Positions 1,488-60,048 of a stretch of DNA of 64,000 bases are shown piece by piece. The DNA lies in assembly GCA_041661005.1 (NCBI GenBank), contig JBAZVG010000001.1, positions 543,515 through 607,514 on the forward strand, written 5' to 3'. The notes beneath the pieces were generated by a model, which was given only the letters and a program-made list of their open reading frames with translations, was not told where the DNA came from and did not search any database. The position numbers and the translations under genes were made by a program. Positions within the stretch are counted from its first letter, which is position 1, and every line of letters starts with the position of its first letter. The DNA comes from Minisyncoccota bacterium. Lineage in GTDB: Bacteria; Patescibacteriota; Minisyncoccia; Phycocordibacterales; UBA9973.

Positions 1488-1916
1488 TTATTGTTTGTGA
1501 ACTCTGGACACAATTCTTACTTTGATCGGAAGTTTACTACCAGCTTTTCTGAGAGCCTCCCCCGCAGTTTTTTCATCTACCCCGTCCACTTCAAAAATAA
1601 TACGGCCGGGAAAAACGTCAAAACAATATCCCTGTGGATCTCCTTTACCCTTTCCCATGCCCACTTCCGCCGCTTTGGCGGTATATGGACGATCCGGAAA
1701 AATGCGAATCCAATACTTTCCAGCCTTGGTGAGCGTTCTGGCTATCACCTTTCGAGCAGCTTCAATCTGGGCTGACCTCACACGCGCCTGAGATACAGAT
1801 TTGAGTCCATAAGAACCGAAAGACAGCTTGATGCCTCTAGTATCCGGCGATGTCGCCTTTGGATTACTTCGTCCCGTCTGCCATTTCCTAAATTTTACTT
1901 TTTTTGGAGTCAACAT
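1488..1916 (-). CDS. rplP: 50S ribosomal protein L16
   Basis: 142-aa ORF MLTPKKVKFRKWQTGR...GMGKGKG... canonical L16. Confidence 0.95.
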   Translation of the reverse strand: MLTPKKVKFRKWQTGRSNPKATSPDTRGIKLSFGSYGLKSVSQARVRSAQIEAARKVIARTLTKAGKYWIRIFPDRPYTAKAAEVGMGKGKGDPQGYCFDVFPGRIIFEVDGVDEKTAGEALRKAGSKLPIKVRIVSRVHKQ

Positions 1917-5002: not shown

Positions 5003-5662
5003 TTATCCTCGAGACTCCAAGAATTTTACACTCTCGACCGGATTTTCTATTAAAAGATACTTGTAATTTAAAACATCAAACGGATTTAAATTTTTCAAAA
5101 AAGCTATCTCGAGTTGTGGTATATTTCTAAAACTTTTCTCTATCTTTTCATCACGTCCGAAAATCGTAGTCAAAACGCGAGGCTTCTTCGAAGCATCAAT
5201 GATTTTCCAACCTGAAACTTTTACCAAATTTTGCACTATCTTCACAGCATCTTTCGTTTTGATAGAAGACGTAGATAGTGAATCAACAAAAAGTATTTCT
5301 CCATCTTTTAATTTTTTTGAAAGAACGGAAAAGAGAGCTTGCGCGCGCATTTTCTTTGAGATTTTTCTCTTGTAATTCTTCTCAGCAAGAGGTCCGTGAG
5401 TCACACCTCCACCAACCCATATAGGGCTTCGAGATGATCCATGTCTAGCCTGTCCGGTTCCTTTTTGCTTCCAAGGCTTTCTACCTCCACCCCGAACTTC
5501 TCCTCGGTCTTTGGTATCGGCAGTTCCAGCTCTTTTGTTGCTCCTCATGCTCTGCACAACTTGGTGTACCAAATCACTGCGCCACTTAGCAGCAAAAACT
5601 TTTTCCGGAAGATCTATCTTCCCTGCCTCCGCCCCTTTTTGGTTGTATATTTTTGCTTCCAT
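5003..5662 (-). CDS. rplD: 50S ribosomal protein L4
   Basis: 219-aa ORF with ...RGGGRKPWKQKGTGQARHGS... L4 signature. Confidence 0.9.
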   Translation of the reverse strand: MEAKIYNQKGAEAGKIDLPEKVFAAKWRSDLVHQVVQSMRSNKRAGTADTKDRGEVRGGGRKPWKQKGTGQARHGSSRSPIWVGGGVTHGPLAEKNYKRKISKKMRAQALFSVLSKKLKDGEILFVDSLSTSSIKTKDAVKIVQNLVKVSGWKIIDASKKPRVLTTIFGRDEKIEKSFRNIPQLEIAFLKNLNPFDVLNYKYLLIENPVESVKFLESRG

Positions 5663-5673
5663 TTGCTTTTGCT

Positions 5674-6288
5674 TTATCTGCTGATTATTTCCACTAAACT
5701 CCCGCGTTTGCCGGCTACTGCTCCTTTGACAAGCATTATGTTATTTTCCTTATCAACAGAAACAACTTTTAAATTCTTTTGAGTAATGCGATCTCCACCC
5801 ATTCTGCCCGCCATTCTCATGCCCTTGGGGACGTGAGTTCGCAGTCCGCCACCGATACTTCCAGGCTCTCTTTCGGAATGTTTCTGACCGTGTGTTCGAG
5901 GACCGCCAGAAAAGCCATGGCGTTTCACAACACCCTGAAAGCCCTTGCCTTTTGACACGCTTGAAATCTGCAACTTATCATCCGGAGAAAAAACTGAAAC
6001 ATCAATACTAGCGCCTTCTTTAACATCTATCGTATCAGTGGGCTTGAGTCTAAATTCTTTAAGATATTTATAAAAAGCTCCTTTCATAGCCCCAGCCCTA
6101 CCCTTTGTAATTCTTTCTTTCTTTTGTGTTCCAAAACCAACTTGAACAGCATTGTAGCCATCCTTATCTTTTGAAAACACTCTCGTCACCGTGATCGGTC
6201 CAGCGGAGAGTATGGTAACTGGAACAACAACCCCCTCAGGTGAGAAGTATTCCGTCATGTTTTCTTTTGTTGCTAAAATGAATTTCAT
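5674..6288 (-). CDS. rplC: 50S ribosomal protein L3
   Basis: 204-aa ORF with ...KGKGFQGVVKRHGFSGGPRTHGQ... L3 signature. Confidence 0.95.
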   Translation of the reverse strand: MKFILATKENMTEYFSPEGVVVPVTILSAGPITVTRVFSKDKDGYNAVQVGFGTQKKERITKGRAGAMKGAFYKYLKEFRLKPTDTIDVKEGASIDVSVFSPDDKLQISSVSKGKGFQGVVKRHGFSGGPRTHGQKHSEREPGSIGGGLRTHVPKGMRMAGRMGGDRITQKNLKVVSVDKENNIMLVKGAVAGKRGSLVEIISR

Positions 6289-8017: not shown

Positions 8018-8282
8018 ATTTTTATTCTTACCCCGCAAGAGCGAGGAGACGTTACTAACTAAAACTCAACATACAGGAGCCAGTTGCTGGGGCTTAGTTA
8101 CTAACTTGCCCCGCTATAAGCGTGGGCGATAATTAAACTTATAATAATGTGCCTCAAGAGCGTTTCCGCTATTAGGAGGCAAATTGGTAAATCAAAACAA
8201 AAACTGCAAAAAGTGCAGTTATTACCATACTAACAAATTAAAAAGTAATGTCAATATTATTTATACAAGTATAAAAACAAAA

Positions 8283-8325
8283 GAAAAAACTTCAAGGCCC
8301 TCCTCCTCGAAGTTTTTTTCTTTTG
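8283..8325. terminator. Bidirectional intrinsic terminator
   Basis: AAAAAACTTC...GAAGTTTTTTTCTTTTGTTTTTT: a hairpin flanked by A-tract and T-tract. Confidence 0.55.
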
Positions 8326-8337
8326 TTTTTTATAAGA

Positions 8338-8787
8338 TTAATTAACTTTTATTGGCTCACTAGATAGACTACATCCTGATTTAAAAACATAGCTATTTGA
8401 ACATGTAACTTGAATATACAAATCAGCTGAATTTTCTCCACTTAAAGGAACCCATGATTCTTGCTTATCGTTTGGAGTATTTGTCTCAATTGTTCTTACA
8501 AGCACAAATTGTCTTGGAGAATCTGAAACCTTTCTAATTAAATTTATATTAACTCCGGCATCAACTGGATAATTAGAAGTTTGCCAGTTAACAGTCTTTG
8601 TCCCAGCAAGTACAGCTACTGCCGGTGAAGTGACTAAAGTAACCGACTGGGTAGAAATTGTCGCTGGAGCAACTTCTTCAGGAGTTTTTTCAGTCTTGGA
8701 TGAAGTAAGAACCCAAAAAATAATACCTAAAACAATGATTACAAAAAGCGCGATATATTTATTTTTATTCATACTTTTATTATACAA
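8338..8787 (-). CDS. Hypothetical membrane-anchored or secreted protein
   Basis: 149-aa ORF with an N-terminal hydrophobic segment (IALFVIIVLGIIFWVL). No recognised domain. Confidence 0.5.
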   Translation of the reverse strand: MYNKSMNKNKYIALFVIIVLGIIFWVLTSSKTEKTPEEVAPATISTQSVTLVTSPAVAVLAGTKTVNWQTSNYPVDAGVNINLIRKVSDSPRQFVLVRTIETNTPNDKQESWVPLSGENSADLYIQVTCSNSYVFKSGCSLSSEPIKVN

Positions 8788-22441: not shown

Positions 22442-22519
22442 ACAAGTATGTCTTTTGTAAAATAAAAGAGTCCGAAGACTCAGCCCATAATTTACTATAA
22501 ACAACTCTAAAATGCAAGC

Positions 22520-22587
22520 CCCGTAGTGAAACTTTGCGACGCATTAACAAATGCATGCTTCGCATATCGCAAAGTTCTACTACAGGG
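22520..22587. repeat. Structured intergenic repeat, family B copy 1 (in the rpsL leader, overlapping the M50 protease stop)
   Basis: CCCCGTAGTGAAACTTTGCGA...TCGCAAAGTTCTACTACAGGG: an imperfect long palindrome. It shares both termini with copies at 56281-56355 and 59882-59953. The interior differs but stays base-paired. Confidence 0.7.
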
Positions 22588-23203
22588 CAAGACCGGTAAA
22601 TAAATGAAAAAGAAACGACAATATGGGCGCTAAATAATCAGAAAAGAAAACAATAAAAACTAGCAACAAAATCAAAGAATATTGCTCATAGGCAAAGATA
22701 AAAGAAGAAGCCTTAGCGGGTAAAAAAGAAAAAAGTATTTTAGAACCATCAAGCGGGGGGATCGGAACTAGATTAAATATACCTAAGGCTAGATTTACTA
22801 TGACAATCACCGAAGTTATAAAATAAAAACCTACTGGTAGCGCTAAACCAGAAGTGAGGCGAATGATAACTCCAAATATAATTGCAATAGAAAAGTTCGC
22901 CAGAACTCCTGCAATGGCAACCCAGAAAGTTCCCCATTTTTTATTACTCAAATTGTCTGGATTGTATGGCACCGGCTTCGCCCAACCAATTAAAAAAGGT
23001 GAATGGGATAAAACTAACAATGTTGGCAAAATAATTGAACCAAAAAGATCTAGATGTTTAAGTGGATTCAAGGTCAACCTTCCGGCAAAGCGCGCAGTCT
23101 TGTCGCCAAAATATTCCGCCATGAAACCATGAGATACTTCGTGGATCACTACAGACATGATGAGTATAGCTACATAAAAAATTGCGTTGGTGCTATTGGC
23201 CAT
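22580..23203 (-). CDS. Site-2 protease family (peptidase M50) zinc metalloprotease
   Basis: 207 aa polytopic membrane protein with HEVSHG (HExxH) and a downstream LDG motif. Confidence 0.8.
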   Translation of the reverse strand: MANSTNAIFYVAILIMSVVIHEVSHGFMAEYFGDKTARFAGRLTLNPLKHLDLFGSIILPTLLVLSHSPFLIGWAKPVPYNPDNLSNKKWGTFWVAIAGVLANFSIAIIFGVIIRLTSGLALPVGFYFITSVIVIVNLALGIFNLVPIPPLDGSKILFSFLPAKASSFIFAYEQYSLILLLVFIVFFSDYLAPILSFLFHLFTGLAL

Positions 23204-23269: not shown

Positions 23270-23521
23270 ATGGCGAAAATATGCGTTATAACAAAAAAGG
23301 GCTCAATTATGGGAGGTGGATACTCAAACAGAACTCGTGCCACCAAATTCAACCCGACTGGTAAAGTGCGTAAATTCTTAAATCTTCAAAAGAAGAGGAT
23401 TTTTGTTCCCGAATTAAATAAATCTATAAATATAAAAGTGTCCACTCAAGGCATGCGCACAATGAAAAAAAATGGCACTTACGCCACCCTCCTCAAAGCT
23501 GGGTTGATAACATCTAGATAG
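23270..23521 (+). CDS. rpmB: 50S ribosomal protein L28
   Basis: MAKICVITKKGSIMGG...RKFLNLQKKRIFVPELNKSINIKVSTQGMRTMKKNG aligns with the L28 pattern (MxxxCxxTGK..., RRFLPNL...RV...SAKGMR...KKG). Confidence 0.85.
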   Translation: MAKICVITKKGSIMGGGYSNRTRATKFNPTGKVRKFLNLQKKRIFVPELNKSINIKVSTQGMRTMKKNGTYATLLKAGLITSR

Positions 23522-23540
23522 AAAACAAGAAGGAAATTTT

Positions 23541-23612
23541 TGCCGGTACGGATTTTTTGAAGCTTAAAAAATCCTGAAGTTTTCGGCTCGTCAGCCTCAA
23601 AACCCCTTAAAA
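23541..23612 (-). repeat. Structured repeat, family C copy a (inverted orientation; rpmB / helicase convergent 3' region)
   Basis: Reverse complement reads GGGGTTTTGAG-GCTGACGAGCC-GAAAACTTCAGGATTTTTTAAGCTTCAAAAAATCCGTACCGG. Matches 27389-27455 and 37694-37787 with compensatory changes in the first hairpin. Confidence 0.7.
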
Positions 23613-23642
23613 ACTTCCTTCTTATTTTCTATCTACGGAAAT

Positions 23643-25028
23643 CTACACTGGCACGAAAGTCAGCGCTGTGCCAGCTTTGCCACTTCGGCCGGTTCGGCCG
23701 ATACGATGCACATAGGTGTCGTAAGTTTGAGGCACATCATAGTTTATAACGTGTGTAACATCTGGAATATCAAGCCCCCTAGCGGCAACATCAGTCGCAA
23801 TCAAAATATTAATTTTATCTTGTTTAAATGAATCCAAAATGCGAATACGTTCACGACTTCTTTTGTCACCATGAATTCCGCCCACTTTGAATCCCATTGT
23901 GTGTAATTCTTTGGCGAGCGTATCCACGCTATGTTTCATCTCGCGGAAAATTAAAACCTTTTGGGTCGGACCGCTTGCCCCGCCGTGGCGTGGGTCTTTT
24001 TTCAAGACTTCATGCAACTTTTCTAACTTTTCTTCTTTGGTACGCACGCGAATTACGTCTTGATCAATATTTTTCGCCGTCTCGCCAGAGACGACAGAAA
24101 TAAAAGCTGGATCTTTCAAATATTGCTCAGTCATTTTTCTAATTTCTGGAGAAAGAGTCGCTGAAAAGAAAAGGGTTTGGCGTTCCTTTGCTGTCTTCCC
24201 TATTATAAACACCATATCATCTCGGAATCCCATATCAAGCATTCTGTCAGCTTCATCTAGCACGACACTGTGGCAAGTCGACAAGTCTAAAACTTTTTTC
24301 TCAATCAAGTCTCGCAAACGTCCGGGTGTGCCGATGACAAACGAAACTCCGAGCTTTATTTCCCTAATTTGTTTCATTATCGGCAATCCACCCACACATG
24401 CGACGGAAAACATCCCAAATCCAAAAGCTAGAGTTTTAAAATCACTTTCTATCTGAAGCGCGAGTTCACGAGTCGGCGCCATTATTAAAACTGTCTCTCT
24501 TTTATTTTGTCCTTTTGTTTTAGAAATTTTCTCAATTAAGGGAAGCAAGAAAGCTGCAGTTTTTCCTGTGCCAGTATTTGCCATACCAAAGACATCTTTG
24601 CCGGCTAAAATCGTCGGTATTGCTTGATCTTGAATTGGCCTAGGATTTTCAAAACCAGCTCCTTTTATATTTTTATGAAGTTGTGGATTAAAAGGAAAAT
24701 CGAGAAATGTGTGTCGGGAAACATAAGGTTTTTCCTCCACTCGAACACCTTTTTTAATGAAACGCGAAAAATCTATCCGTTCACCACGAGATCTCTTATT
24801 GCTTGAACGTCTAAAATTGCCCCCGCCTGCAACGCTATGCGTAGCATTGCGGGCAGGTCCAAAACGAGGACGAGAATTATTAAACCTGCCTCGACTTGCG
24901 CTGGACAAGGCGGGTTTTCCACTGCTTGAGTTGTATTTTGCTTTGTGAGCAAAAGTATGACTGCTAAATTTTTTCGGGTTAGCCGAATGGCTCGCCCGTA
25001 GGGCTATGCCCGAGGGATGTTTATACAT
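23643..25028 (-). CDS. DEAD-box ATP-dependent RNA helicase with ~110-aa R/S/G-rich N-terminal region
   Basis: Q motif (FENPRPIQ), motif I (GMANTGTGKT), DEAD (VLDEADRM), SAT, HRIGRTGR. The first ~20 codons overlap a family D mini-palindrome, so the true start is uncertain. Confidence 0.85.
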   Translation of the reverse strand: MYKHPSGIALRASHSANPKKFSSHTFAHKAKYNSSSGKPALSSASRGRFNNSRPRFGPARNATHSVAGGGNFRRSSNKRSRGERIDFSRFIKKGVRVEEKPYVSRHTFLDFPFNPQLHKNIKGAGFENPRPIQDQAIPTILAGKDVFGMANTGTGKTAAFLLPLIEKISKTKGQNKRETVLIMAPTRELALQIESDFKTLAFGFGMFSVACVGGLPIMKQIREIKLGVSFVIGTPGRLRDLIEKKVLDLSTCHSVVLDEADRMLDMGFRDDMVFIIGKTAKERQTLFFSATLSPEIRKMTEQYLKDPAFISVVSGETAKNIDQDVIRVRTKEEKLEKLHEVLKKDPRHGGASGPTQKVLIFREMKHSVDTLAKELHTMGFKVGGIHGDKRSRERIRILDSFKQDKINILIATDVAARGLDIPDVTHVINYDVPQTYDTYVHRIGRTGRSGKAGTALTFVPV

Positions 25029-26826: not shown

Positions 26827-27360
26827 TTATTGATCTTTATATGATTCTATTTCTTTATTCACAATTTCCAATTTTACTCCCGATTTTTTAAAAACATTTT
26901 TTGACTGCTCAGTTAGATGATAATTTTTAAAAGCAACAACACGTTTAATCCCCGCATTGATAATTGTTTTCGCACAAGTATAACAAGGAACCATTTTGCA
27001 ATATAGTGTTGCCCCATCAATCACAACACCGTGCCGGGCGGCATTCGCGATAGCGTTCAATTCTGCATGAGCTGTCCTGAGACAATGACGAGAAACTGTT
27101 CCATCTTCATTCGTGAGAGTATGCATCTCATGACCCACCTCGTCACAATGAGGAAGTCCAACCGGAGAACCCACGTAGCCAGTAGCAAGAATTCTTTTAT
27201 CTTTTACCAAGATTGCGCCTGAGCGTCCACGATCACAAGTTCCACGTGAACCGACAAGTTCTATCATTTGTAAGAAATACTCGTCCCAGGATGGACGTTT
27301 GTGTTTTGTAACTTTTTCGACAGTCTTTTTCATATCTCTAATATACTCCAAAAATATCAA
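26827..27360 (-). CDS. dCMP deaminase (CMP/dCMP-type zinc deaminase)
   Basis: 177 aa with HAELNAI...PCYTCAKTII (the H-A-E and PC-x-x-C zinc motifs). Confidence 0.8.
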   Translation of the reverse strand: MIFLEYIRDMKKTVEKVTKHKRPSWDEYFLQMIELVGSRGTCDRGRSGAILVKDKRILATGYVGSPVGLPHCDEVGHEMHTLTNEDGTVSRHCLRTAHAELNAIANAARHGVVIDGATLYCKMVPCYTCAKTIINAGIKRVVAFKNYHLTEQSKNVFKKSGVKLEIVNKEIESYKDQ

Positions 27361-27388
27361 AAAACAAAATTTTTAAAATATAACTTTT

Positions 27389-27455
27389 GGAGGGGTTTTG
27401 AGCGCGACGGCGCGAAAACTTCAGGATTTTTTAAGCTTCAAAAAATCCGTACCGG
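27389..27455 (+). repeat. Structured repeat, family C copy b
   Basis: GGAGGGGTTTTGAG-CGCGACGGCGCG-AAAACTTCAGGATTTTTTAAGCTTCAAAAAATCCGTACCGG. Confidence 0.7.
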
Positions 27456-27482
27456 AAAAAGTTCATATTTTAAAAATTTTGT

Positions 27483-28511
27483 CTAATCTTTTTTTCCAAG
27501 CGCTTTTAACACTTTTAAATACATGGCTTCAACTATCTTTTTCTGTTTTTTACCAGTTGTAACATAGTGATCCAACCCCGGAGCGGCGTTAATCTCGATA
27601 ATATAATAACTACAATCTTTAGGATTTTGGGTTATATTTCCCTTTGTGACCATGATGTCCACCCCTGCAATACGTAGCCCCATTTTTTTTGTAAGTTCTA
27701 TGGCAATTTTCTGAAACTTTTTATGAATTACGTCAGTAACATCAACAGAATCTCCACCAGTGGACAGATTTGCGTTATCCAGTAGAAATATTTGCTGGTT
27801 TTTTTTGAGGATACTTTTAAAACTTAAAGTTTGTCTTGCCAATTTGTTTTTAATTCTTTCGTCAGAAAAATTTATTTTTGTATCTCGCTTATCAAAAATA
27901 AAATTCCTTTGTTTTTGTTTCAAAAGTGAAAGTACCGAACTTTTTCCATCTCCAGTAACAGAAAGTGGTATTCGTTCATAAGCAGAAATTATTTTTTCAT
28001 CGAGAACCACGATGCGATAATCGAGCCCCGGTAAATATCGCTCAATAATCGCTATTTTATCTGTCTTGAAAATTTCCAGCAGTACTCGCTTCAACTCTTT
28101 ATCATTCCAAACAAGAGCCACACCGGAACCTTGGCTCTGGCTATTTGGCTTTGCTATAACTGGATATCCTAAATGTTTCGCATATTTTATCCCTGACAAA
28201 ATTGTGCGATTGCTTTTTATGGCTTTAGCCCAGGAATCTTTAAAAAAAGTCCGTCCTTTCGCTACCGGATACCCGAGCTTTTTCATGAAAAATTTGGCGT
28301 AATCTTTATCTTTAGCAATATCCGCTGAAGCGACATGATTCAAGTCCAAAGAATAAAAACGCAATGACCTAGTGATGCCATTTGGATAAATTATTTGAGC
28401 TACGACTCCCCATTCCGGCTCGATCACAATCTTTGCGCCAATTTTCGGCGCAAGTTTTTTTAGAAGATTAGTCAAATACGGAAAAGATGGTTTTTTATTT
28501 CTTTTTTTCAT
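27483..28511 (-). CDS. ATP-grasp ligase, RimK/CofF/cyanophycin-synthetase-like
   Basis: 342 aa with ...NLSTGGDSVDVT...GVDIMV...YIIEINAAPGLD, which is comparable to RimK SNLHRGG...VDIL...MEVNASPGL. Overlaps the upstream cofE-like gene by 17 nt. Confidence 0.55.
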   Translation of the reverse strand: MKKRNKKPSFPYLTNLLKKLAPKIGAKIVIEPEWGVVAQIIYPNGITRSLRFYSLDLNHVASADIAKDKDYAKFFMKKLGYPVAKGRTFFKDSWAKAIKSNRTILSGIKYAKHLGYPVIAKPNSQSQGSGVALVWNDKELKRVLLEIFKTDKIAIIERYLPGLDYRIVVLDEKIISAYERIPLSVTGDGKSSVLSLLKQKQRNFIFDKRDTKINFSDERIKNKLARQTLSFKSILKKNQQIFLLDNANLSTGGDSVDVTDVIHKKFQKIAIELTKKMGLRIAGVDIMVTKGNITQNPKDCSYYIIEINAAPGLDHYVTTGKKQKKIVEAMYLKVLKALGKKD

Positions 28512-36489: not shown

Positions 36490-36540
36490 ATACCTAAGTA
36501 TACCCACCCCGGGCGAATTTGTTAAATAAGTTATCCACAC

Positions 36541-36577
36541 TAAAAAAACATCAAGGAGTATCTTTGATGTTTTTTTA
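36541..36577. terminator. Bidirectional intrinsic terminator
   Basis: AAAAAAACATCAAGGAGTATCTTTGATGTTTTTTTAG. Confidence 0.6.
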
Positions 36578-36696
36578 GTGCTTCCGGTCGAAAAGTCGAG
36601 TATTTTATTTTAGCTCGACTCTTGCACATAAAATTCTGCTGAATTTTTGTACAAGCCGGCCCTCGATGCCGACGCATCTGTGGACCGAAAATTGAG

Positions 36697-37178: not shown

Positions 37179-37658
37179 CTATTTCCCTTTCGCTACTTCA
37201 CCAACCGCGATAGCTAAACGTTGCATCGGACTCTTGAGTAAGAATGCAAGTTTCGAAAGCAAAACTTCTTTCGAAGGTATCATCGCTAGCTCCATCATTT
37301 TTGCGCCGGTGATAAATTTCCCTTCAAAAATCCCTCCTAAAATATTCAGCATCCCCTTGTGGGTTTTCTGAAAATTATAGATTTCACGCGGTCCCGCTAT
37401 TTCATCCTTTGAATACGCGATAGCAACTTCTCCTTCAAGATCCGGAATTTCGCCTTCCGCTTTTCCTTTCAATGCTCGAGCAAGAAGGGTTTTTCTGGAA
37501 ACTTTATAGCCTACTCCACCTGAACGAAGGTCCCGACGAAGTATAGTCTCATCGCTGACTTTCAAACCATGAAAATTCACGAAAACTAAAGACTCAGATT
37601 CTTTGATCACTCCCTCAAGATCTTTTACTATTTCTTCTTTTTTTGATTTTTGTAACAT
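37179..37658 (-). CDS. rplJ: 50S ribosomal protein L10
   Basis: 159 aa in the rplJ-rplL arrangement. The L10 fold is recognisable (MLQKSKKEEIVKDLEGVIKESESLVFVNFHGLKV...). Confidence 0.85.
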   Translation of the reverse strand: MLQKSKKEEIVKDLEGVIKESESLVFVNFHGLKVSDETILRRDLRSGGVGYKVSRKTLLARALKGKAEGEIPDLEGEVAIAYSKDEIAGPREIYNFQKTHKGMLNILGGIFEGKFITGAKMMELAMIPSKEVLLSKLAFLLKSPMQRLAIAVGEVAKGK

Positions 37659-37693
37659 GTTTGATTTTTAAAAACTTTTGAAACATAATTTTT

Positions 37694-37787
37694 TGAAGGG
37701 GTTTCGAGGCTGTCGAGCCGAGAACTTCCCTTGGCCGTCCCGGCACGGGCGAGGCAGGATTTTTTAAGCTTAAAAAAATCCGTACCG
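37694..37787 (+). repeat. Structured repeat, family C copy c (with a 27-nt internal insertion)
   Basis: GAAGGGGTTTCGAG-GCTGTCGAGCC-GAGAACTTCC[insert CTTGGCCGTCCCGGCACGGGCGAGGC]AGGATTTTTTAAGCTTAAAAAAATCCGTACCG. Confidence 0.65.
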
Positions 37788-37799
37788 AAAAAAAATTGA

Positions 37800-37990
37800 T
37801 GTTGATAAAGTTTTAACTAAAAAAACGGCTTTCGCCGTCAAAGATATCGACCCCGCCTTGACTCGCATAGGCGAGGCAGGCCACTAAATAGGCTATAACA
37901 AAGATTTATCTTTGTTCGCCCGTTCCGACTATGTCGGAATTAGGGACTTATTAAGACCTTACGGTCGCCTATCTTCTTTGCGGTATTTAC
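37800..37990. other. GC-rich multi-hairpin non-coding region (candidate structured RNA)
   Basis: Successive hairpins ACGGC-TTTC-GCCGT, GCCT..CTCGC-ATAG-GCGAG..AGGC and TTCCGAC-TAT-GTCGGAA. No ORF. GC-rich relative to surroundings. The motif GGCGAGGCAGG recurs at 37748 and 37869. Confidence 0.3.
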
Positions 37991-47812: not shown

Positions 47813-49516
47813 TTAGATAAATTCCTGCTGATAGCATTTCTCACAATAAATTATTTCTGGTCTTTCCGGCGCGTAAGAAGTCCTTATCATCTTGTCGCAT
47901 TTTGCGCATGTACGATTGTAGAGTTTCGGCATCTGCAGTTTATCAAAACGAGATTTCTCTCTACATTTCAAACACCGATCAGGAAGAGGTATATTCATTT
48001 TTCTTAGAAGATCAAACTCTAAACCGGCAATCTTATATCTCCTGTCGCAAGTAGTGCAAGAAATAACTTCCTTTAACATCGATTCATCCACTTCGCTTAT
48101 AGTTTCAGGTAAGTCATTGCCAGAAATAGTTGCTTTGCTTTGTTGTTCTACCTCATCATTCCAAAAATATCCGTCTCTTAATGCTTCCTCTTTTGTCTTT
48201 GGACAAAATTTATAAGCCGTAGAATTATTATAAGCAAATTTACCAAAAACTATTTGAGGAAATTCTCCATATGTCCATATTCTACCTTTTTCATCAACAT
48301 ATGGATTTATTTTCATATCTTCAATTATTTTTTCACGTAAAATTTCATACTCTTCCTTTGAATATTCCTTGTTTAGGATGCAATGTTTTTTTCTCTTTAA
48401 ACTCACACAACCGAAATCATTTTTACCAGATCTATTCCAAAGACAGTACTCAACATCTACAACATCTTCGACGCAATATGCAGAGAATTTAACGTTACTG
48501 ACATTTTCACCAACTGTAACAGATTCATAAATAAGTTCAGCATTATTACCCCAACCCGAATAATCCATACAATCTTTTATTGGAGAGACAGTAATAAACT
48601 GGCACCATTTACTATTTTCTGCTTTACTTGCAATATAAATTTCTTTAGAATTTTTAGAATTAAATAAATATTCTCCAGTAACATTTAAATTTAAAGTGTT
48701 GCCTGTATAAAACCTGTAAGGATGTTTTTGCCAAAATTTTTCGGCTTCTTTTTGAACTTTTTTAATTCCAGAACGCGTGTCTAACTTAAATTCTTTTAAT
48801 TTTTCAAAATATTCTTCTTTAGAATACTGAACATTAAAGATCTGGTAGGATGCGCCCCGTAAATTTACACAACCAACACAATACATAGAACTATAGCAAT
48901 TTCTAGAAAACCAAACATCTGTACAGGCGTCGCATTCTTTGGAATAAAAAACGCGATAAGAATCATTCTGACCTATAGATTCGTAACACAATTCTGATTT
49001 AAATATTCTAAATGAATCAGCTGTATCTTTGGCATTATTTAAGAAGGAAGAAAAGTAAACATTTTCACAATAATCAGCCCAGATGGCAAGGGTGCAATTT
49101 TTAGAAAAACCGATAGAATTACTGTAGTCACAATTTTTCAAATTTAAATAACCCGATTCTAATGACGGAAAAGGAACTTTTTCTGAAAGTTGTTTTAATT
49201 GTTCTAAAAAAGAACGGCTAGAATCATAATCCATACCATACTCTGTTCCATCCCAAGAATCTTCCCACCAACATGGCTGGCAATATACCGTAATTTTTTG
49301 TTCTGGTGGATACATTGAAAGAGCACGCTTGCCACACTTGTCGCAATCACGATAAAAAAGATACCAGCCATTGTGACAAGACATGCGTCTGATCATTCGA
49401 CACTCCGGACACCAAGTCGGCGCTGGAACTTTTATTTTCTCGTAAAAATTAAAGTCTTCGGATTCTATTGTGAAATCTTTTTTGCAATTCTGGCATATTT
49501 TATCTTCTGCTTCCAT
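47813..49516 (-). CDS. Hypothetical large multi-zinc-ribbon (Cys-rich) protein
   Basis: 567 aa with at least ten CxxC pairs clustered at both termini (CQNCKK...CPEC; CDKCGK; CTTCDRR...CLKCREK...CAKCDK...CEKC), internal repeats, and no TM. Confidence 0.5.
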   Translation of the reverse strand: MEAEDKICQNCKKDFTIESEDFNFYEKIKVPAPTWCPECRMIRRMSCHNGWYLFYRDCDKCGKRALSMYPPEQKITVYCQPCWWEDSWDGTEYGMDYDSSRSFLEQLKQLSEKVPFPSLESGYLNLKNCDYSNSIGFSKNCTLAIWADYCENVYFSSFLNNAKDTADSFRIFKSELCYESIGQNDSYRVFYSKECDACTDVWFSRNCYSSMYCVGCVNLRGASYQIFNVQYSKEEYFEKLKEFKLDTRSGIKKVQKEAEKFWQKHPYRFYTGNTLNLNVTGEYLFNSKNSKEIYIASKAENSKWCQFITVSPIKDCMDYSGWGNNAELIYESVTVGENVSNVKFSAYCVEDVVDVEYCLWNRSGKNDFGCVSLKRKKHCILNKEYSKEEYEILREKIIEDMKINPYVDEKGRIWTYGEFPQIVFGKFAYNNSTAYKFCPKTKEEALRDGYFWNDEVEQQSKATISGNDLPETISEVDESMLKEVISCTTCDRRYKIAGLEFDLLRKMNIPLPDRCLKCREKSRFDKLQMPKLYNRTCAKCDKMIRTSYAPERPEIIYCEKCYQQEFI

Positions 49517-56195: not shown

Positions 56196-56280
56196 CCTAT
56201 TAAAAAATTAAAATAATAATGCTTACTCTTTCCACATGTCCGCTGATTTTTTAACGGGACAAGTATTTTAGATACTAGCA

Positions 56281-56355
56281 CCCCGTAGTGAATTTTGGAA
56301 ATGCGCGGAGCGTGCTCCGACGCAAGTCGGAACTTTTCCAAAATCTACTACTGGG
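56281..56355. repeat. Structured intergenic repeat, family B copy 2
   Basis: CCCCGTAGTGAATTTTGGAAA-[TGCGCGGAGCGTGCTCCGACGCAAGTCGGAAC]-TTTTCCAAAATCTACTACTGGG. Confidence 0.7.
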
Positions 56356-56390
56356 TAGCATAAAACCTATTTTTCTGATATGATTTTATT

Positions 56391-57014: not shown

Positions 57015-57033
57015 AATTATTTGGTGTTCTAGC

Positions 57034-57122
57034 GGAGGCGTCGCATAGTTGGTCTAGTGCGCTTGTCTTGAAAACAAGTACGCCGCAAGGCGTCGTGAGT
57101 TCGAATCTCACCGCCTCCGCCA
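57034..57122 (+). tRNA. tRNA-Ser(TGA)
   Basis: GGAGGCG-UC-GCAU-AGUUGGUCUA-GUGC-G-CUUGU-CUUGAAA-ACAAG-[UACGCCGCAAGGCGUC]-GUGAG-UUCGAAU-CUCAC-CGCCUCC-G-CCA. Long variable arm, anticodon UGA, encoded CCA. Confidence 0.9.
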
Positions 57123-57300
57123 GAATACCAAGTCTTGTCATCGCCTTCCACGACCCGCCGAAGGCGGAGTCTCGCCTACGGCGGGACGAGTCGGCGAGAT
57201 CCCGCAGTAAAGCGGGAAAAACTATCGGGAGAAATCCCTTAGAGGTTCTCATTCCCTAGGCAGATCCGCCTTGGGCGGAGACTCCTCTGTCATCCGCAAA
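57123..57300 (+). other. Hairpin-rich element 2 following tRNA-Ser (paralogous to element 1)
   Basis: Begins AAGTCTTGTCATCGCC (compare element 1 CAGTCTTGCCACCGCC). Contains CCGCC-GAA-GGCGG, CCGCC-TTG-GGCGG and GATCCCGCAGTAAAGCGGGAAAAAC. Bounded by TGTCATC(G/C) at both ends. Confidence 0.35.
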
Positions 57301-59816: not shown

Positions 59817-59881
59817 AAAATATTGGAAATATAATTTTTGTCAAATTGCACAGCCTCTTGCCTTAAAAAACCCTTGATATA

Positions 59882-59953
59882 TCCCGGTAGTGAATTTTGG
59901 CAAAGCATTAAATGCGCTCGCTTTGCGAGCATTGCCAAAATCTACTAACCGGG
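59882..59953. repeat. Structured intergenic repeat, family B copy 3
   Basis: TCCCGGTAGTGAATTTTGGCAAAGCATTAAATGCGCTCGCTTTGCGAGCATTGCCAAAATCTACTAACCGGG. Confidence 0.7.
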
Positions 59954-60048
59954 TATAATGTATGGGTATTAAAAATAAGGGTAAAAGTCCCGCCTGCGCA
60001 CAAAGCTTCGGCGTGGCAAGGTCGAAAGAATTATTAATAGTTAGTTAA

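Follow-up and report, generated by a model that had tools for sequence, protein, structure and literature searches.

The described elements closest in kind to the repeat analysed here, called family C, are the Correia elements (NEMIS), MITEs of Neisseria. These are non-coding units of ~100-170 bp with terminal inverted repeats of ~26-40 bp and a target-site duplication, which lie in many copies at gene boundaries, fall into subfamilies through internal insertions and deletions, and yield transcripts that would form a long hairpin. Correia hairpins are substrates of RNase III. Family C follows the same general plan, but its target duplication is 7 bp rather than TA, its hosts are Patescibacteria, its best conserved part is a covarying centre and not the termini, and its termini are common to elements with unrelated centres. 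We know of no IS that matches it.

Several other systems are similar in part. The Rickettsia palindromic elements (RPEs), which are ~100-150 bp long, belong to a lineage with reduced genomes and have no known transposase, occur both between genes and in frame inside protein genes, as family C does in a uvrB gene (L078; L labels denote the individual loci compared); on family C, two frames of one strand are open. Unlike RPEs, family C is rarely found in coding sequence (one clean and one less clean case among the ~125 copies listed) and has clear inverted repeats and target duplications; the likeness is functional, with no sequence relationship expected. REPs and REPINs, associated with RAYT transposases, are likewise dispersed extragenic palindromes that form long hairpins at gene ends. 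REPINs conserve two inverted REPs while the loop varies, whereas family C conserves its loop (the core) while its arms drift, and family C has target duplications and no GTAG motif. The ERIC, BOX and RUP elements of enterobacteria and streptococci share with family C a modular, structured and intergenic character, internal modules conserved across species and co-transcription with genes; they differ in sequence and hosts, and for family C transposition is directly demonstrated by target duplications and empty sites. The double-hairpin element (DHE) of chytrid fungal mitochondria, a small mobile unit with two adjacent structure-conserved hairpins that occupies spacers and occasionally genes, is alike by description but is organellar and without long inverted-repeat arms.

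Three copies of family C in the window

The window, the whole 64-kb stretch of Minisyncoccota DNA that was analysed, contains exactly three matches to a 31-nt motif, GGATTTTTTAAGCTTNAAAAAATCCGTACCG, at 23544-23574(-), 27424-27454(+) and 37757-37787(+), where dinucleotide shuffles give 0 expected, and GGGGTTTYGAG comes before each of the three (copies a, b and c; Table 1). A dispersed, structured family, as proposed in the sequence-only reading of this stretch, is upheld. When the window was scanned with a covariance model, no fourth copy was found in the 64 kb, the next score being only 15.6 bits. Long, AT-rich inverted-repeat arms of 27-38 nt bracket each core and extend each copy, so the ~70-nt limits first given to the element were too narrow. 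Arms and core together are predicted to fold into a junction that is three-way in copies a and b and four-way in copy c (z-scores between -3.3 and -7.0); the - strand of copy a folds with -54.5 kcal/mol (z = -7.0). The 27-nt GC-rich insertion described earlier in copy c was confirmed, and it recurs at the same position in L068 and L058, thus marking a sub-lineage. At the tip of hairpin 1, three compensatory pairs separate copy b (GCGC/GCGC) from copies a and c (GGCU/AGCC).

According to Pfam, the flanking genes encode L28, a DEAD-box helicase, dCMP deaminase, an ATP-grasp protein and L10. The earlier placement of the copies at gene ends was correct but their assignment to the coding strand was not: the consensus was given in the GGGG... 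strand, which runs antisense to rpmB, to the gene for the ATP-grasp protein and to the ORF preceding rplJ; of the genes flanking the copies, only the one for the helicase, next to copy a, has the same sense. The rpmB stop codon (23519-23521) falls within an arm of copy a, the helicase stop codon is at 23643-23645, and the ATP-grasp stop codon (27483-27485) falls within an arm of copy b. Read along the - strand, copy c closely follows a classical terminator at 37839-37824(-) (GACGGCGAAAGCCGTT followed by TTTTT, at 37839-37814), which separates it from the upstream ORF and whose hairpin is kept at the orthologous site in L023, L027, L051 and L118. Mechanical ORFs at 27301-27486(+) and 27398-27562(+) read through copy b (…RGFERDGAKTSGFFKLQKIRTGK…), and spurious ORFs reading GFERDGAKTSGFFKLQKIRTGK were found among the window ORFs.

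Other repeats were noticed in the same DNA. A second palindromic family, (G/A)CCCCGTAGTGAA...TTCTACTACNGGG, with arms of 22-29 nt and loops of 22-33 nt, is present at 22518-22588, 56280-56356 and 59878-59957, the last of these sharing its intergenic site with the family-C elements of L057 and L099. AT-rich intergenic hairpins without the family-C core lie at 8257-8345 and 36538-36580, in one of which perfect arms of 17 nt lie within arms of 41 nt, while in the other a 3-nt loop separates arms of 20 nt; both may be bidirectional terminators. The tRNA-Ser at 57034-57122 has ~13 extra complementary bases on each side that extend the acceptor stem (inverted repeat I16, 57021-57131) and may form a processing stem.

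Table 1. Positions of family-C features in the window and of modules nested within hairpin 2 at other loci.
Feature	Position	Strand	Remarks
Copy a, whole element	23515..23635	-	~121 bp; inverted repeat I4, fold
Copy a, setting			between convergent rpmB (+) and DEAD-box helicase gene (-); junction type TAA...GGC
Copy a, core	23545..23606	-	62 nt; covariance-model match 112.1 bits
Copy a, hairpin 1	23576-23606	-	GGGGUUUU GA GGCU GACG AGCC GA AAACUUC
Copy a, rest of core	A 23575; hairpin 2 23550-23574; GUACC 23545-23549	-	
Copy a, arm on GUACC side	23515..23541		I4, 27 nt, 93% complementary
Copy a, arm on GGGG side	23609..23635		I4, 27 nt, 93% complementary
Copy b, whole element	27351..27495	+	~145 bp; inverted repeat I1; arm type AAAATATAACTTTT
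Copy b, arms	27351-27388/27458-27495		I1, 38 nt, 76%
Copy b, setting			between dCMP-deaminase gene start (-) and ATP-grasp gene end (-); antisense to both
Copy b, core	27392..27453	+	62 nt; covariance-model match 116.8 bits
Copy b, core parts	hairpin 1 27392-27422; A 27423; hairpin 2 27424-27448; GUACC 27449-27453	+	hairpin 1 tip GCGC GACG GCGC
Copy c, whole element	37659..37826	+	~168 bp; inverted repeat I3
Copy c, arms	37659-37694/37791-37826		I3, 36 nt, 72%
Copy c, setting			abuts rplJ start codon (rplJ -, ATG 37656-37658); antisense to both flanking genes
Copy c, core	37698..37786	+	89 nt; covariance-model match 54.8 bits, insert shown as insertion
Copy c, core parts	hairpin 1 37698-37728; insert 37729-37755; A 37756; hairpin 2 37757-37781; GUACC 37782-37786	+	
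Copy c, GC-rich extra hairpin	37729..37755	+	27 nt, CCTTGGCCGTCCCGGCACGGGCGAGGC; between hairpins 1 and 2
Nested hairpins in hairpin 2 loop	L024:3100-3235, L047:6260-6385, L083:3097-3222, L058:979-1105		GC-rich
Nested 130-nt palindrome in hairpin 2 loop	L009:3563-3683		

Distribution among Patescibacteria

The pattern GGGGTTTYGAG-N(8-14)-CGARAACTTC, scanned over one genome per species, matched at least 119 stretches, with ~65 Patescibacteria assemblies (species genomes) among the matches listed. The assembly names among these matches include Nomura-, Yonath-, Yanofsky-, Adler- and Vogelbacteria, Paceibacterota, Minisyncoccia and Parcubacteria, and some automated entries carry the label 'Saccharibacteria'. 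A lone match in Agrobacterium is without the rest of the element and looks like a chance occurrence. A search for further copies with the covariance model returned 114 matches in the first 100 of the at least 119 loci, and the full core order of hairpin 1, a single A, hairpin 2 and GUACC is present in nearly every match listed. Flanking inverted repeats were found in all 118 testable copies among the matches listed (median of 35 aligned positions and 29 Watson-Crick pairs). In addition to the three copies in the 64-kb window, one MAG has at least seven loci.

No viral contig matched the family-C pattern, which argues against a phage vector. Among the families of Rfam 15 only tRNAs passed the gathering threshold, and at E <= 10 the region around copy a (23480-23670) returned only spurious miRNA-precursor hairpins, with at most 27 bits against thresholds of at least 70. 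A known RNA family or ribozyme (hammerhead, twister, pistol or hatchet) was rejected on this absence of Rfam matches at gathering or at E <= 10; the hammerhead core CUGANGA can be read by eye in copy a and is absent from copies b and c. We found no description of family C in full-text searches of the literature.

Structure and conservation of the core

The asymmetric 62-nt core is predicted to form two hairpins and, together with the arms, a three-way junction. Across 110 distinct copies among the matches listed, 99% of the cells in 20 core pairs are standard pairs, and double changes occur at 10 core pairs (231 cells), a level reached by 0 of 500 shuffles and lost when the register is slid; since copies are not independent, through shared descent and transposition, such covariation counts, like the orientation counts given below, overstate the number of events. 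The same three helices were recovered independently by RNAalifold. The covariation of hairpin 1, first read from GGCU/AGCC and GCGC/GCGC in the window, is strong across the 110 copies. Y8 and R25 covary as well (C-G in 64 and U-A in 43 copies among the matches listed), in support of a register in which a GNCG-capped stem of 4 bp stands on a tandem G.A internal loop (GA/GA). Hairpin 2 covaries in other genomes and its loop tolerates GC-rich hairpin insertions (L024, L047, L083, L058 and L009); these, together with the 27-nt hairpin of copy c, L068 and L058, suggest that small hairpin modules insert into loops. The diverged relatives L036, L073 and L039 keep UUUCG.A-stem-GNCG-stem-GAGAA and hairpin 2, closed directly by a helix.

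Judged by identity between same-site pairs, the core (82-98%) appears to change more slowly than the arms (50-88%) and the flanking coding DNA (48-87%), with the proviso that the scan pattern fixed 21 core positions, at which conservation is partly by construction. Gene conversion or concerted evolution among cores may add to it. Peptide coding was considered as a cause and rejected, because the two hairpin-1 variants would be translated differently, as ERDGAK and EADEPR.

Folding strand and orientation

Limited evidence points to the GGGG strand as the folding strand. It has the lower folding energy in 97 of 118 copies among the matches listed, carries an invariant G.U at two pairs, and at a third pair has 18 G.U against 1 A.C. 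With respect to the neighbouring genes, the consensus strand of 103 copies among the matches listed is antisense in 46 and sense in 14, while 34 copies lie between convergent and 9 between divergent genes; for the co-directional pairs, the 46 antisense cases out of 60 correspond to p = 4e-5. This orientation is biased and not fixed, which tells against the earlier suggestion that the coding strand carries a 3'-UTR or intercistronic RNA element acting in cis, and, being mostly antisense, the folding strand would usually be outside the neighbouring mRNA. At least one gene 3' end adjoins 94 of the 103 copies, and the GUACC side faces a gene 3' end in 80. In 85-93% of copies every frame of the reverse strand contains a stop codon, so that an ORF entering from the GUACC side ends at once, while two frames are open on the GGGG strand. 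These reverse-strand stops offer an alternative explanation of the orientation bias at the DNA level.

Arms, termini and evidence for transposition

Very probably, family C is the folded, conserved middle part of a non-autonomous DNA transposon (MITE), which in full length measures ~105-170 bp (103-168 bp for the elements delimited) and has no transposase coding capacity. A tblastx synteny comparison among the loci revealed many empty orthologous spacers of 24-60 nt against ~153 nt for filled ones, and in MAFFT alignments arms and core together make up the inserted segment (L001 vs L117, ~125 nt; L084 vs L080, 103 nt), with further clean whole-unit insertions in the comparisons of L118 with L023, L059 with L114 and L063 with L041. 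At the site of copy c, in front of rplJ, L023 and L051 have an empty spacer, and an element occupies it in the window, L027 and L118. One arm type is shared by the window and L027 and a different one is seen in L118, indicating independent insertions. In assembly MFTH01, five near-identical copies are flanked by 7-bp direct repeats (TAAGTAA, ATTTTAC(A), TATACAA, TCAAAAC and TTTATCA), four of which are equidistant from the termini CTTTGAATTACGAAAC...GTTTCGTAATTCAAAG (~40 nt of arm per side), the fifth, at L050, being offset by 3 nt. Additional target duplications were seen at L056 (AGTAATT) and L102 (AATCT(A/G)A). Over all copies among the matches listed the excess is modest, 11 of 117 against ~5 expected, and duplications are discernible in young copies only; none is visible at the three window copies, which are probably old insertions at gene boundaries.

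Insertion into a coding sequence was found in the uvrB gene of L078, where an in-frame element (453-559) accounts for a 39-aa (117-nt) insertion; the alignment of the encoded protein with solved UvrB breaks off at residue 429 and continues from that same residue beyond the insertion. In the second apparent coding copy (L098:2626-2731), located in an M1 aminopeptidase gene, the frame is open and the alignment less clean. All the features that define a MITE are present: the element is small, ends in inverted repeats, duplicates its target and is polymorphic in its insertion.

The conserved termini read (CTTT)GAATTACGAAAC...GTTTCGTAATTC(AAAG). The arms, of ~25-40 bp, are best kept as CTTTGAATTACGAAACTCGTCGAAGGCATG... 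and are represented in the window by AT-rich, decayed versions. They fall into three types: AAASTTTTTGAAATATAACTTTTGAA (window copies b and c), ...AAGRAWAAKGTTTTTAA...GGCAAAAA (window copy a), and a long GC-richer form in MFTH01. We read these types as related through intermediates such as L101 and L116, a judgement made on the sequences rather than a statistical one; on this reading the arms would be decayed inverted-repeat termini, and arms made specifically for each locus at insertion are ruled out. Mismatches in the arms are unbiased by strand (107 G:T vs 93 A:C, p = 0.36, in copies among the matches listed), the behaviour of inverted repeats at the DNA level. The same termini, GAATTACGAAAC...GTTTCATAATTC, enclose unrelated centres in other MITEs (L053 ~1540-1680(+) and L071 ~5596-5707(+)), that of L071 being flanked by an 8-bp direct repeat, ATGCTATA. 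Because MITEs with different centres have these termini in common, the termini and not the core are likely the transposase site, and the core is probably cargo.

Neither in the window nor in the 0.95 Mb of loci was an ORF found between family-C termini, and clustering of 903 ORFs from the loci gave no transposase-like family enriched near copies; no autonomous element or transposase came to light there, which counts against the MITE reading. L009 was considered as an autonomous copy and rejected, its large hairpin 2 insertion being another palindrome and not an ORF. The largest of the clusters unites paralogous proteins of ~570 aa, encoded at 47815-49516(-) in the window and by 19 ORFs of 16 loci, in which zinc-ribbon CxxC motifs recur and which have ...VYCExCYQQEV at the C-terminus; this family often adjoins elements and is not a transposase candidate. 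The empty site of the L084/L080 pair consists of a short palindrome, AAAAAATATTTTTT, which could reflect a target preference or an excision footprint. In one orthologous spacer (L005:4789-4894 and L095:1689-1794) the arms, CTTSRAAAGCAWAATTTAG, are homologous and the core orientation is opposite, owing either to in-place inversion by recombination between the arms or to re-insertion.

Alternative explanations

The position of the copies at gene ends, with 34 between convergent and 9 between divergent genes among the matches listed, the long and very stable stems, and the other long AT-rich intergenic hairpins of this genome (8257-8345 and 36538-36580) are what would be expected of a terminator or bidirectional attenuator hairpin whose conserved loop is shared by chance. 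We consider this highly improbable: a terminator scan called none of the three window copies, and a separate, classical terminator directly adjoins copy c. Where an intrinsic (Rho-independent) terminator has a GC-rich stem, a short loop and a U-tract, the stems here are rich in AU, the loop is a structured one of 62 nt and no U-tract follows consistently. Moreover, the copies between divergent genes and the one within uvrB are hard to place in such a scheme, and insertion polymorphism indicates that flanking genes manage without the element. The earlier view that this is not a classical terminator stands. Two conserved, covarying hairpins, the hint of a single folding strand, and a bias in orientation that might follow the replication strand instead suggest an element of the REP/REPIN-like or IS200/IS605-derived (PATE) kind, mobilised in single-stranded form by a Y1/HUH transposase that recognises the hairpins; the GUAC beside the hairpin recalls the GTAG of REPs. 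IS200/IS605 and REP elements, however, are known to have neither terminal inverted repeats nor target duplications, whereas the inserted unit of family C contains long terminal inverted repeats and generates 7-bp target duplications. In addition, its termini are common to MITEs without the hairpins, and copies a and b, only 4 kb apart, are oppositely oriented. Membership of REP/REPIN is rejected on the long inverted repeats, the target duplications and the lack of GTAG, and membership of the IS200/IS605-derived PATEs on the first two of these; a single-stranded DNA element inserted into pre-existing terminator loops is rejected on the same two features and on empty sites that are without arms. 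The REP/PATE explanation, largely refuted by the target duplications and inverted repeats, is thus extremely improbable. The label REP-like used in the sequence-only reading is apt only loosely, as the long terminal inverted repeats, 7-bp target duplications and presence or absence at orthologous sites point to a MITE.

It has also to be considered whether the core is a functional structured RNA, either cis-acting (3'-UTR or intercistronic) or a small RNA gene, whose role explains the conservation and for which the MITE is only the vehicle. Such a role would fit the strong covariation of both hairpins and of Y8:R25, the presence on the GGGG strand of an internal loop rich in purines (GA/GA) and of a conserved GNCG loop, the restriction of G.U pairs to that strand, a conservation of the core that outranks that of flanking coding DNA, the three-way junction that L036, L073 and L039 keep with different closing helices, and the gene 3' ends beside 94 of 103 copies among the matches listed. 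We nevertheless hold it to be unlikely, given that 46 of the 60 co-directional cases place the folding strand antisense, that no conserved promoter was found, that there is no Rfam match even at E <= 10, and that the orientation bias has the DNA-level alternative of reverse-strand stops. The order of conservation, with the centre above the arms, is the reverse of that in a typical MITE and counts against the MITE reading. On the evidence as a whole, family C is an undescribed MITE of CPR bacteria whose termini are modular and whose centre covaries.

Proposed mechanism and significance

Movement of the element would be due to a trans-acting DDE-type transposase that recognises the termini and makes 7-bp staggered cuts, while selection for the fold would keep the core. 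Most likely the core would act as a folded single strand of the GGGG... sense, either as RNA or as extruded DNA, and this strand would bind a conserved host or element factor; the role proposed for the core is much less certain than the MITE identity. In transcripts that cross an element, the arms would form duplex stems of ~27-38 bp, which by analogy with the Correia elements may plausibly be RNase III or stability determinants.

A further suggestion, decidedly doubtful in our estimate, is that the core is an undescribed functional nucleic-acid module that rides on MITEs and is selected more strictly than neighbouring coding DNA in at least 65 Patescibacteria species. Such a module would comprise the three-way junction, the tandem G.A internal loop, the GNCG tetraloop and the conserved UCA/GUA junction strands, and could be a regulatory or processing RNA that binds protein, a new small ribozyme, or a site of folded DNA that promotes its own retention. 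Because the covarying centre is more conserved than adjacent genes and the termini are common to other cargoes, it is a candidate for a new functional RNA or DNA motif.

As a MITE, family C is of an ordinary kind; what is unusual is the combination of modular termini with a covarying, slow-changing centre. The genomes of CPR bacteria are streamlined and very small and nonetheless carry it widely, and it accounts for many of the long intergenic hairpins in Patescibacteria genomes. Since family C can extend or interrupt ORFs, it can mislead gene calling, and ORFs that read through it could be miscalled as genes. It also provides a marker of recent transposition in uncultured lineages.
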